In this document: piece after piece, positions 16,599 to 19,637 of the stretch
Numbering within the stretch: the first letter of the stretch is position 1
Layout of the letters: each line of letters starts with the position of its first letter
From: a virus
IMG/VR virus record: IMGVR_UViG_3300021420_000016
Span: 1 to 64,000 of that record
Reading direction: 5' to 3' (one strand)
Length of the DNA: 64,000 nucleotides
Notes under the pieces: model-generated
The model's input: only the letters and a program-made list of their open reading frames with translations
The model's database searches: none
Told to the model about the DNA's origin: nothing
Translations under genes and position numbers: made by a program

Positions 16599-16814
16599 TC
16601 ATCGGGCCTGTTTCCTGTCGCCTGCCAGTTTCGCCAGTGCCGCTTCACGCATCCATGCCGCGACGGACGGCCGCCGCATGGCGGCCCTGGCCCGCTCCTC
16701 CTCGGCGGCGAAGATCTCGTCGTGCAGCCTTCTCGGCATGCTCATGATGAAGCGGACCAGTTCGTCCGGGTCTAGCCTGTCCTGCTCCGCGTCGCGTGCT
16801 GCGCTCTCTGCCAT
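16599..16814 (-). CDS. Ribbon-helix-helix (Arc-like) DNA-binding protein
   Basis: VRFIMSMPRRLHDEI...SVAAWMREAA; extended -10 TGATATCAT 6 nt before ATG. Confidence 0.65.
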   Translation of the reverse strand: MAESAARDAEQDRLDPDELVRFIMSMPRRLHDEIFAAEEERARAAMRRPSVAAWMREAALAKLAGDRKQAR

Positions 16815-16915
16815 GCCGCGATGATATCACGCTTGCATCCCCCCGTGTCTACCCGCTCATGGCCCGCCAGCCAAATATCACCGCCGGGATCCGGCAGGCA
16901 AGGGAGAGATCAACC

Positions 16916-17356
16916 ATGGCATCTGACGTTGCAGTCGCCGTGCCTTACGGGTCCCTGGCGCAGGGCCAGGGCGTCTACGGGACCGCCACGGGGGCGACGA
17001 CGGCCTACTCCCCGTGGGACTCCACCACCGTCACCGCCGCCGCAGGCGCGGGTGCGGGCACGTCGCCGCCGGCGCCGGTGGTGGGCACTACCCCGGCGGC
17101 GACGATGATCCGCGGGTCGGTCACGTGGGGCACCGGGACGGCCACGGCTACCGGGTCGCAGGTGTCCATCACCTTCGGGTCTACGTTCCCCACGACACCC
17201 ACGGTGGTGCTGTGCCCGACGACGATCGCGGCCGGGACGCTGAACACCTACATCACGTCGGTCGGGTCCACCGGCTTCACGGTCGCCGCCGCGGTGGCGC
17301 CAACGGTGAGCCAGGGCGCGACGGTCTACGGGGCCGCCTGGTACGCCTCCCTGTGA
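16916..17356 (+). CDS. Thr-rich head decoration/fibre protein (H-type-lectin-like beta fold)
   Basis: ITFGSTFPTTPTVV...STGFTV motif; first + strand gene after the capsid. Confidence 0.65.
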   Translation: MASDVAVAVPYGSLAQGQGVYGTATGATTAYSPWDSTTVTAAAGAGAGTSPPAPVVGTTPAATMIRGSVTWGTGTATATGSQVSITFGSTFPTTPTVVLCPTTIAAGTLNTYITSVGSTGFTVAAAVAPTVSQGATVYGAAWYASL

Positions 17357-17456
17357 CCCTTTGAAGGCATTCCCTTTCAATCCCCCCGAAGGGCCTTCTT
17401 TTGAACAACTCCTGTTCCTCCCATGCCGCGATAGCGGCCCGGGGAGGTGATGAGGG

Positions 17457-19293
17457 TTGAGGATCATATTGCATTCGAATGCACCGTGGCCCTCAACCTT
17501 AGGCTGGTTACGGAATCCAGGCGCGCATCTGGGCGCGCAAGTGGCGCGACATGGGCCACGAGGTCATCTTCAGTGCGTTCTCCGGTCTGGCGGGTTCGCC
17601 GTTGCCGTATGACGGGTTCAAGGTGCTTCCGTCGGTGTTCAACGGTGACCCGTTCGGTGCGGCGATCCTGGGGGAGCATTTCCGCCGGGAGCAGGCCGAT
17701 TTCATCATCACTTTGTGTGACATCTGGGCTTTGGAGCCGTCGCATCTGACGGGGCTGCCAGTGGCGCACTGGATGCCGGTGGACTGTGCGCCGCTGTCGA
17801 TGCGGGATGAGAACTGCCTGAAGGTGTCGGGCGCGGTGCCGATCGCGATGTCCCGGTTCGGGGAGCGGATGCTCCGCGATGCGGGTTTCGAGACGGTTCT
17901 GTACGCGCCGCATGGCATCGATTTGGATGTGTGGTCGCCGTCGCTGGACCGGGATGAGGCGCGGCGGCAGCTCGGCGTGGATGGGCTGTTCACGATCGGG
18001 ATCAATGCGGCGAACAAGGACGCGTTCCGTAAGGGCATGGCCGAGCAGTATGAGGCTTTCGCCAGGTTCCATGCGAAGCACCCGGATAGCGCGCTGCTGG
18101 TGCATTCAGTGCTGGCGGAGAAGGATTCCCTGGATCTGCGGGTGATCGAGCAGCGCCTTGGGCTGACCGGCGCGGTGCGGTATGTGGATCAGTACGCGCT
18201 GCTGACGGGGCAGGTGCCGCAGGAGCACCTGGTGAACTGGTATGCCGCCCTGGACCTGTATTCGGCGTGCTCGTTCGGCGAGGGGTTCTGCCTTCCCGCG
18301 GTGGAGGCGATGGCGTGCGGCGCGCCGGTGGTGGCGACGGACTGTTCCGCTTTGGCGGAGGATGTCGCGGCGGGGCAGTGGCTGGTAAAGGGCGAGCGAT
18401 TCTGGAATCCCACCCATGGCTCATGGTGGGTGAAGCCGGATATCGGCGGGATCGCCAAGGCGTACGAGGCCGCATACCAGAAGGGTCCCGCGTGGCAGGC
18501 GAAGCGGGGGAAGGCGCGGGCGTCAGCGGAACGGTTCGGCGTGGACCGGGTCGCGGAAGAGTACTGGGAGCCGGTGCTGGCCGCGTTGAAGGAGCGGTTC
18601 TGCCCGGCGGTGACCCTGACTGGCGCGGGGGAGCGGCCGGAGGGCGCGCCGGAGGTCTCAGTGTGTTTCGCGTCCCGCGGCCGGCCGGAGTCTCTCGCGG
18701 AGACGGTGGCGCAACTGGTCGCTTTGGCCGCTGAGCCGGACGCGATCGAGGTCCTGATCGCCGCCGACCCGGATGACGAGGCCACCCACACCGCGGCGCT
18801 GCCGCCACAGGCGCGAGTGTGGGTGGCACCGGAACGGTACGGCTACACCGGGCTGCACCGCTACCTGAATGCGCTGGCATCTCGTGCTGCCGGTGAGTGG
18901 ATTTTGTGGTGGAACGATGACATGCGGATGGTCACCCCCGGCTGGGACAAGATCATCCGCTCGAACCGGCCCGCCGTCTTGTGGCCGCATGCCAACCATG
19001 TGCATCACGCCAACATCGCCCCCGCGTGGCCGAAAGCCTGGTCGGACGCGATGGGGCACGTGTCGCCGACGACGCACATGGACACGTATCTGCAAAGGCT
19101 GGGGGAGGCGCTCGGCCGGCACGACCCGGTCGCGGTGGAGATCACCCATGACCGGGCGGATGTCACCGGGAACCACGACGACCAGACCTACGCCGAGGGG
19201 CGCAAGCTGCTTGGGCCTGAAGGCATGGTCGATGAGGTCTTCCCCTACGACCAGGTGGCCAGGGACGCGGCGGTCATCCGGGGGCTGCTGTGA
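17457..19293 (+). CDS. Bifunctional glycosyltransferase (GT4 + GT2-like) with a 7-nt coding gap: join(17457..17498,17506..19293)
   Basis: SD GGAGGTGA + TTG gives MRIILHSNAPWPST; the +1 frame continues GYGIQ...; GT4 motif EGFCLPAVEAMACG; C-terminal ASRGRP...WNDD. Confidence 0.85.
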
Positions 19294-19637
19294 CCGGCTG
19301 CCCGTTCTGCGCGCGCATCGAGGCGGCCGGATACGAATCTTGGGCGAGCGACCCGGATGTGGTGTGGTTTGAGCCGCTGAACCCGGTCACGCCGGGGCAC
19401 ATGCTGTTCGTGCCGGCCCGCCATGTCGCGGACGCGCTGGAGGACCCGTACACGACAGCGCTCACGATGGAAATCGCCTCGCGCAAGACCCAGGGGTCTT
19501 GCAATCTGATCACGTCGGTGGGCGCGCTGGCCAGCCAGACGGTCTGGCACCTGCACATTCACGCCGTGCCCCGCCGGCCCGGCGACGGCCTTCAGTTGCC
19601 CTGGCCGCAGCGGTCGTTTGCGGAGATAGCCGGATGA
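19290..19637 (+). CDS. HIT-family nucleotide hydrolase
   Basis: CPFC, PVTPGHMLFVP, QTVWHLHIH. Confidence 0.9.
   Translation: MTGCPFCARIEAAGYESWASDPDVVWFEPLNPVTPGHMLFVPARHVADALEDPYTTALTMEIASRKTQGSCNLITSVGALASQTVWHLHIHAVPRRPGDGLQLPWPQRSFAEIAG

Follow-up and report, generated by a model that had tools for sequence, protein, structure and literature searches.

A candidate UUA-triggered translational bypass near the start of a glycosyltransferase gene in a soil-metagenome phage

The window analyzed here is a 64,000-nt stretch of phage DNA (positions 1-64,000 of the IMG/VR record IMGVR_UViG_3300021420_000016), part of a single 154,048-bp contig (C1) of 68% GC from a soil metagenome. It carries a glycosyltransferase gene whose reading frame is interrupted, 14 codons after its start, by the seven nucleotides TTAGGCT. 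Judging from the sequence comparisons set out below, we consider it probable that the enzyme is made by a UUA-triggered 7-nt hop, in which peptidyl-tRNA-Thr would leave ACC for GCU and decoding would resume at GGU 17506. A bypass of this kind (ACC to GCT, with an abutting stem) had been proposed from the letters of the window, before any comparison (hereafter, the sequence-only reading). It gains support from gaps at 15 related loci (the window included), from a landing triplet that can pair with the take-off tRNA at 14 of the 15, from a hairpin at all 15, and from a grammar shared with the terminase gene of the Streptomyces phage phiHau3. The parts of the locus, in window coordinates, are as follows.

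17443-17450, plus strand: extended Shine-Dalgarno (SD) sequence, GGAGGTGA; duplex with the 16S 3' tail, -18.2 kcal/mol
17457-17498, plus strand: first coding segment, a TTG start and 13 further codons, MRIILHSNAPWPST, corresponding to GT4 beta-1 and the next loop
17496-17498, plus strand: take-off codon ACC (Thr), codon 14, in frame with TTG 17457
17499-17505, plus strand: coding gap TTAGGCT, 7 nt, in which TTA 17499-17501 would be the rare A-site codon
17500-17502, plus strand: TAG closing the +1 frame, inside the gap and overlapping the TTA
17503-17505, plus strand: proposed landing triplet GCT, the last triplet of the gap
17506-19293, plus strand: resumed coding sequence, GYGIQARIW..., with its stop at 19291-19293; a GT4 domain, then a GT2-like C-terminal domain
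17508-17612, plus strand: non-productive frame-0 continuation, with a second TTA at 17508-17510 and TGA at 17610-17612

Read in frame 0 from TTG 17457, the gene gives M/L-RIILHSNAPWPST, then TTA (17499-17501), GGC, and T; without recoding, this frame ends at the TGA and yields a 51-residue product. The glycosyltransferase itself continues in the +1 frame, for 595 codons from GGT 17506. The long open reading frame (ORF) in that frame reads A-GYGIQARIWARKWRDMGHEV from 17503, and because TAG 17500-17502 closes it upstream, gene callers begin the glycosyltransferase at ATG 17551, the first start codon after the TAG, with none between. Excising exactly 17499-17505 joins the two parts as HSNAPWPST/GYG and restores the conserved protein. 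What the sequence-only reading had said of the SD, TTG 17457, the TTA-GGC-T, the +1 frame, and the TAG at 17500 is correct base for base. The 10-bp stem that it placed at 17453-17462/17491-17500 is there as well, with nine Watson-Crick pairs and one G.U pair, as the outermost part of a more extended hairpin. The other TTA to which it drew attention, at 17508, exists in the window, but relatives do not conserve it: L002 (one of the related loci) has CTA.

The sequence-only reading had advised a check of the bases themselves. Sequencing runs (n = 4, including an RNA library) were compared as assembled contigs, in which rare gap-less variants, the level of transcription, and the ends of transcripts would not show. 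Contigs from one DNA run, possibly of the source sample, cover 17200-18152 with no differences from the window, and a contig from the RNA library, which belongs to another study, spans 17434-17584 with no difference, no indel, and the gap kept. Two other metagenome assemblies (L002 and L026) have the identical arrangement ACY/TTAGGCT/GGC. The gap bases are thus the same in the DNA-run contigs, the independent RNA-library contig, and the two assemblies. A one-base indel could in principle break a frame, but the chance that this gap is a sequencing or assembly indel error is practically nil. The explanation is refuted by the same bases in the contig of an independent study and in two other assemblies, and analogous gaps occur in 14 relatives; also, a one-base deletion would leave the frame unrepaired because the TAG follows in +1.

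Protein searches returned glycosyltransferase homologues with up to 84%-85% identity. Most of the close relatives (56%-85% identity) are called from an internal Met or with an out-of-frame N-terminus, and the more distant homologues start M(R/K)IL.HSNAPW..TGYGQQ. We fetched the DNA of 29 related loci and read all three frames, which showed 15 to be interrupted and 14 uninterrupted. A gap was taken to be the block whose skipping restores the canonical HSN-x6-GYG, so that its boundaries are set by homology. Block skipping is the only operation that restores this motif at all 15 interrupted loci, and at every one of them the take-off codon is in frame with the assigned start. In total, the 15 loci hold 12 gap versions of 4-11 nt, with the take-off at codon 6 to 16. 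They are given below as take-off codon, gap, and codon at which the enzyme resumes.

Window, L002, and L026: ACY, TTAGGCT, GGY; 7 nt
L004: ACC, TTAGTAGGCT, GGC; 10 nt
L012: ACT, TTAAAGGGCC, GGC; 10 nt
L003: ACC, TTAAAAAGGCC, GGC; 11 nt
L036: ACT, TAGCT, GGC; 5 nt, with a frame-0 stop in place of the TTA
L039: ACT, TTACT, GGC; 5 nt
L038: AGT, TTAAGC, GGG; 6 nt, in frame
L008 and L031: AAT, TTAGC, GCY; 5 nt
L037: AAT, TTAGT, GGC; 5 nt
L030: AAT, TTAT, GCC; 4 nt
L019 (=L020): AAT, TTAGAT, GCC; 6 nt, in frame
L013: CAC, TTACCGC, AGC; 7 nt, between the H and the S of HSN

An alignment of homologues had been suggested as a way to recognize a 7-nt insertion. It recovers the same TTAGGCT in L002 and L026 and other gaps elsewhere. 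No interruption was found in 80 more distant viral homologues (L042-L121; 30%-46% identity, GC 40%-72%); these came from a second scan of viral contigs that used intact queries, and provide no independent test set for the gap rules. On these comparisons, the gaps are confined to a high-GC soil clade around the window. A megablast search of 17300-19300 against 50,697 phage records gave no match, and tblastn found only distant glycosyltransferases (≤37% identity).

The gaps follow a small set of rules. The first is that the gap begins with TTA, as it does in 14 of the 15 interrupted loci; the other (L036) begins with TAG. No TTA occurs among 280 N-terminal codons of the intact relatives. TTA is the rarest sense codon of the phage (14 of 30,304 codons in coding-like ORFs, or 0.46 per 1000), and several of those 14 sit in spurious antisense ORFs. 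Its position exactly at the frame break, in the window and in 13 further related loci, is more than chance would give. G or A follows the TTA in 11 of the 14 gaps that begin with it, so that a +1-frame stop overlaps the TTA. The take-off codons (ACC, ACT, AAT, CAC, and AGT) are all NNY. Finally, the last triplet of the gap can pair with the take-off tRNA, G.U pairs allowed, in 14 of 15 loci. The pair of triplets is identical in L039 (ACT>ACT) and synonymous in L038 (AGT>AGC), and other pairs are A-to-G variants (AAT>AGC, AGT, or GAT; CAC>CGC; ACY>GCY). The probability of such a match by chance is ~2e-5, based on six of about seven independent cases.

The shift that is required varies from locus to locus (+1, -1, or 0), and therefore a one-base slip is not the common mechanism. 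Quadruplet decoding of UUAG was considered and rejected: it fails in L004 and in the 5-, 6-, 8-, and 11-nt gaps. Another possibility is that the seven nucleotides are lost from the nucleic acid rather than skipped by the ribosome, be it through a subpopulation of DNA without the gap, through editing or splicing of the RNA, or through slippage during transcription. Nothing direct speaks for this, and we think it very unlikely, although a minor gap-less form could be missed given that contigs drop rare variants. The gap is retained in the RNA-library contig, and the gaps are neither homopolymers nor repeats. The 12 gap sequences have nothing in common except that they open with TTA and close with a triplet matched to the tRNA, a pattern that suggests action by the ribosome and not by a polymerase or a ribozyme.

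Both coding parts appear to be maintained as protein. Across the nine codons from the H of HSN to the take-off, the window and L002 differ by six synonymous changes and no nonsynonymous one (including TCG versus AGC, both Ser), and the five codons that differ between the window and L003 are all synonymous changes. All relatives conserve the protein sequence encoded between the gap and ATG 17551, and at each of the 15 gapped loci the downstream frame is open, its first 228 codons being free of stops. To judge from these patterns, purifying selection acts on both parts. The earlier expectation that skipping TTAGGCT would give a GT4-type N-terminus was borne out, in that HSNAPWPST/GYG is the best match to a profile built from 61 intact N-termini. 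The T/GYG junction scores 96.8 bits against this profile, other junctions 88.9-93.1 bits, a protein starting at ATG 17551 44.3 bits, and the unrecoded frame 15.4 bits.

Matches to PF13692 (Glyco_trans_1_4; 51.2 bits) and PF00534 (Glycos_transf_1; 43.6 bits) are both above the Pfam cut-offs, and a weak match to PF00535 marks the GT2-like C-terminal domain. The AlphaFold model of the closest intact relative (L007, ~75% identity) has a predicted local distance difference test (pLDDT) score >87 over residues 1-380 and a GT-B fold, with beta-1 at residues 2-8, a loop at 9-14, and helix alpha-1 at 15-29. Its best PDB matches are a PBCV glycosyltransferase (3oy2), MshA, PimA, BshA, and WaaG. By these profile matches and this model, the enzyme is a GT4 (GT-B fold) glycosyltransferase. 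Placed on the model, the window gap coincides exactly with the boundary from loop (T14) to helix N-cap (G15), and a protein begun at ATG 17551 would, by the same model, be without two elements of the Rossmann core, beta-1 and alpha-1.

These results can be set against the view that no full-length enzyme is made at all, the gene being a pseudogene or encoding a truncated protein from ATG 17551, with the 5' cassette a selfish or regulatory insertion that silences it. Gene callers do start every close relative at an internal Met, the 5' module behaves as a swappable cassette of ~100-150 nt, and homing-endonuclease genes lie beside some gapped loci (see below). We nevertheless hold this view to be unlikely. 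Both the mini-exon (the first coding segment) and the stretch from the gap to ATG 17551, in which no start codon is available, are conserved as protein through synonymous change, and the 580-codon downstream frame is intact in 15 of 15 gapped loci. The protein from ATG 17551 would be without the two structural elements just named, and the TTA, landing-triplet, and hairpin rules would have no purpose in dead genes.

Two hairpins precede the gap in the window, both on the plus strand.

17417-17447, plus strand: hairpin HP1, in which CCUCCC (17417-17422) pairs with GGGAGG (17442-17447), with an inner stem GCCGC/GCGGC
17454-17500, plus strand: hairpin HP2, in which the start-codon region pairs with the codons up to the take-off and with the UU of the UUA

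The 58 nt that end at 17500 fold with -23.4 kcal/mol (z = -2.95), and the 116-nt leader of the window, with both hairpins, has z = -3.74. A hairpin whose 3' arm ends from -2 to +4 of the take-off codon occurs in 15 of 15 gapped loci, and the intact loci are without it. Averaged over loci, the 58 nt ending at the take-off fold with -19.2 kcal/mol (z = -2.0) in gapped genes versus -12.7 kcal/mol (z = +0.4) in the 14 intact ones (Mann-Whitney p ~3e-4, uncorrected for relatedness). In HP2, the paired positions +2, -1, -3, and -4 change on both sides of the stem among the window, L002-4, and L026. RNAalifold, run on a MAFFT alignment of seven gapped loci, recovered HP1 and not HP2. Because a 7-nt indel misaligns the 5' arms, HP2 was judged from per-sequence folds, which lean towards pairing.

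HP1 pairs CCUCCC with GGGAGG, and therefore the SD is sequestered. In the window, it appears in both the minimum free energy and the centroid fold, and it is a consensus structure in the seven gapped loci, with G-C to G-U changes. We observed an HP1-type hairpin at the equivalent place in L002-4, L008, L012, L013, L026, L031, and L036, and its inner stems vary among loci (GCCGC/GCGGC, GCTGCGC/GCGTAGC, GCCGCC/GGCGGC). HP1 looks like an additional lock on translation, over and above the bypass. A search of Rfam with the window leader returned no family. The SD of the gapped genes is unusually strong: predicted duplexes with the anti-SD range from -15.9 to -21.1 kcal/mol in all 15, versus a mean of -10.9 kcal/mol in the 14 intact loci (p = 9e-5, likewise uncorrected for relatedness).

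The intact genes have a peculiarity of their own, in that ATT, ATC, or ATA stands at the start position in six of the 14. We observed such codons in L005 (L005:2914), L007 (L007:1254), L015, L016, L029, and L033, and also in L042, L044, L051, L052, and L094. The SD of these intact homologues is weak and of the GAAGGG type, and no ATG, GTG, or TTG stands in frame ahead of the conserved beta-1 strand. Starts of this type may be a second way to hold translation of the enzyme low.

The supply of tRNAs enters the argument through a 38-tRNA array on the minus strand of the contig, beyond the window (C1:72557-80918). It includes Leu(CAG), Leu(GAG), Leu(CAA), and Thr(GGU), and neither tRNA-Leu(UAA) nor tRNA-Leu(UAG) is among the 38. 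The first tRNA call, c[72557,72627], has a two-base anticodon and was considered as a frameshift suppressor. It was rejected for its poor acceptor stem; with this stem and a 6-nt anticodon loop, it is probably degenerate.

The sequence of events that we propose is as follows. Ribosomes would initiate at TTG 17457 behind the very strong SD and translate 14 codons, which would bring peptidyl-tRNA-Thr onto ACC 17496-17498 with the very rare UUA in the A site. Because tRNA-Leu(UAA) would be scarce, and is absent from the 38 tRNAs of the phage, the ribosome would stall. A simple +1 slip would be unproductive, since the overlapping +1 triplet is a UAG stop. Instead, the peptidyl-tRNA would quit ACC, the mRNA would slide by 7 nt, and the anticodon would re-pair with GCU 17503-17505 through G.U pairing. 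Decoding would restart at GGU 17506 to give ...PST/GYGIQ... and the full-length enzyme with its GT4 and GT2-like domains. If UUA were instead read as Leu, frame 0 would be kept and translation would terminate after 51 residues. The hairpin that joins the start to the take-off site probably aids the forward movement and/or limits ribosome loading. The sequences show the anatomy of the locus, its conservation, and the comparative rules; the stall, the hop and its efficiency, the role of the hairpins, and any dependence on tRNA-Leu(UAA) are inferred.

Reading the UUA as Leu need not end in termination, however, if the frame were set right shortly afterward, either by a +4 hop of tRNA-Gly from GGC 17502-17504 to GGU 17506-17508 (...STLG/YG) or by a +1 slip on GGC-U (...STLG/GYG). 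Take-off and landing would then be cognate; the necessary GGC-N-GGY is found in the window, L002, L004, L012, and L026; and the products, at 90.6 and 88.9 bits, score near the best junction. The route is unworkable in L003, in L036 (which has a frame-0 stop), in L039, and in any gap that follows Asn or His. GGC is not followed by a slow codon that could set off the shift, the TTA at the gap start would go unexplained, and the added residues would lengthen a loop that has a fixed length in 61 intact homologues. We rate a late correction of this kind as improbable.

Several points nonetheless weigh against the UUA-triggered hop. The landing ACC>GCU requires a G.U pair at codon position 1 and is thus near-cognate to tRNA-Thr(GGU), unlike the validated phiHau3 sites, which land on true synonyms, and L030 (AAT>TAT) is the sole exception to the landing rule. 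The alternative junction PS/AGYG scores only 3.7 bits below T/GYG. With a nascent chain of 14 residues at the take-off, a stall could favor peptidyl-tRNA drop-off. UUA hunger is deduced from phage codon usage alone, a search of 185,579 species genomes having found no relative. Relatedness among the loci, already mentioned, tempers the hairpin and SD p-values.

The closest known parallel to the proposed hop is the large terminase gene of phiHau3, in which UUA gaps of 10 nt occur at two sites; the StrepC.1 and S. catenulae prophages have gaps of 7 nt (Antonov et al. 2023, RNA Biol, PMC10732093, following Smith et al. 2013). The 2023 study reports full-length product in Streptomyces, the junction peptide in E. 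coli once UUA had been changed to UAA, and about twofold more recoding with a +1 stop put into the gap (PMC10732093). Reading the phiHau3 sites directly, we find GGC/TTACTCCGGT/AAG and TCT/TTAACGGTCC/ACG, both with synonymous landing. Several features are common to phiHau3 and the window: the take-off codon is NNY, the gap (~7-10 nt) opens with UUA in the A site, its final triplet can pair with the take-off tRNA (in the window by way of G.U), decoding picks up at the codon that follows, mRNA structure lies beside the UUA, and the setting is a high-GC actinophage that hardly uses TTA. There are also differences. The gene here encodes a GT4 glycosyltransferase and not a terminase; the gap comes early, 6-16 codons into the gene, as opposed to mid-gene, and the flanking hairpin includes the start codon; the window landing is near-cognate where the phiHau3 landings are synonymous; and there are 12 gap sequences of 4-11 nt here, some in-frame and one with UAG, in comparison with four published sites. 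Product data exist for phiHau3; in the glycosyltransferase, bypassing is proposed from sequence. By its grammar, we regard the glycosyltransferase gap as a new case of UUA-triggered short-gap translational bypassing.

The best-known bypass, in T4 gene 60, spans 50 nt and is associated with a MobA homing-endonuclease cassette; it uses matched GGA codons, UAG in the A site, and a nascent-peptide signal (PMC5009743; Manning and Atkins, bioRxiv 10.1101/2022.08.31.505936; Wills et al., bioRxiv 10.1101/2024.12.09.627546). As in the hop proposed here, a peptidyl-tRNA leaves its codon beside a slow A-site codon and re-pairs downstream, and pairing of the mRNA that exits the ribosome is proposed to drive forward movement. 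A further likeness is the cassette-like, mosaic distribution, with HNH genes beside gapped L038 and L039. However, the gaps here are 4-11 nt rather than 50 nt, there is no matched GGA pair (the window has ACC/GCU), the A-site codon is the rare sense codon UUA and not UAG (L036 excepted), the nascent peptide of 6-16 residues is too short for action from the exit tunnel, and no endonuclease gene adjoins the window gap.

Programmed +1 frameshifting at hungry or stop codons, as in prfB (CUU-UGA-C) and Ty1 (CUU-AGG-C), is similar in that a slow A-site codon triggers re-pairing of the P-site tRNA. In the window, by contrast, a +1 slip from ACC to CCU would pair poorly and put UAG in the A site, and relatives with the same motif need -1 or 0 shifts.

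Gapped genes are interspersed among intact ones in a tree built from the first 228 residues, and gain and loss of the gap takes 10 parsimony changes, at least seven of which are forced by well-supported branches. L013, with its gap after His, and L031, with its gap after Asn, are near-identical sisters of intact L024, and L030 is near-identical to intact L015. In pairwise DNA profiles, the two kinds of gene differ only in a block of ~100-150 nt comprising the leader, the mini-exon, and the gap, with flanks that are 80%-100% identical on both sides (e.g., the window versus L007, and L030 versus L015). Because the differences are confined to this 5' block and the flanks are conserved, leader, mini-exon, and gap can be regarded as an exchangeable cassette.

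Homing-endonuclease matches, mostly weak, occur at four of 10 gapped and one of 10 intact loci. HNH endonuclease genes lie directly beside the gap-bearing genes of L039 (1-372, plus strand), where the glycosyltransferase SD lies within the 3' end of the HNH gene, and of L038 (1-356, minus strand). Weak LAGLIDADG-like ORFs lie near gapped L013 (2-832, minus strand) and L031 (336-1010, minus strand), and intact L029 has one weak LAGLIDADG_3 match. No homing-endonuclease gene was found beside the window gap.

A wider reading, tentative and on present evidence rather doubtful, is that the 5' cassette is a unit made up of the SD-sequestering hairpin, the extended SD, the start/take-off hairpin, and a UUAR with its landing triplet, which may have been exchanged horizontally and may repeatedly have replaced a weak native start (often AUU, AUC, or AUA) in soil actinophages. 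It would make the enzyme conditional on scarcity of tRNA-Leu(UAA), and so sense host physiology and switch glycosylation, and the 12 variants would define the rules of the hop. Those rules, as part of the cassette idea and put forward just as tentatively, might be general: an NNY take-off codon read by G34 tRNAs, tolerance of G.U at any codon position, and a +1 stop overlapping the UUA.

To our knowledge, natural bypassing is limited to very few genes, namely T4 gene 60 and its homologues, byps of yeast mitochondria, and four sites in three Streptomyces phage or prophage terminases. Within the literature library that was searched, no paper ties bypassing to phage glycosyltransferases. The family described here offers 12 natural versions of a gap within one 10-codon stretch, with closely related intact genes as built-in controls, so that the rules of short hops become testable (the trigger codon, the landings tolerated, the +1 stop, the upstream hairpin, and compensation by SD strength). 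It also has a practical side, in that gene callers systematically shorten these enzymes by ~30 residues. If the hop depends on the supply of tRNA-Leu(UAA), a glycosylation pathway of the phage would be coupled to host physiology. The sequence-only reading had taken this as far as a switching of virion glycosylation by tRNA-Leu(UAA) level or developmental state, which is conjecture.

Immediately upstream of the glycosyltransferase lies one further feature.

16796-17356, plus strand: conserved small ORF of 186 residues, rich in Thr, Ala, and Gly, ending in ...AAWYASL

This ORF has a weak H-type lectin match (E = 9e-4, below the cut-off). In L002-L008, the enzyme is preceded by a 146-residue counterpart, and in L021 by a similar ...WYASL end. 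Its product may be a substrate or partner in glycosylation. Further upstream is a weak capsid-like ORF, and downstream are genes for a HIT protein, a methyltransferase, and a nucleoside diphosphate (NDP)-sugar epimerase.

Other frame switches associated with TTA were sought in a crude scan of the 154-kb genome as a whole, and no second convincing site emerged. Beyond the window, on the plus strand at C1:118245-118247, we observed an in-frame TAG that separates ...AFNICD from CMIRAGTQGRVMTYRKYRP..., inside a would-be C-x-x-C motif. With an ATG two codons later, it could be an ordinary gene junction, or it could be a site of read-through or hopping.

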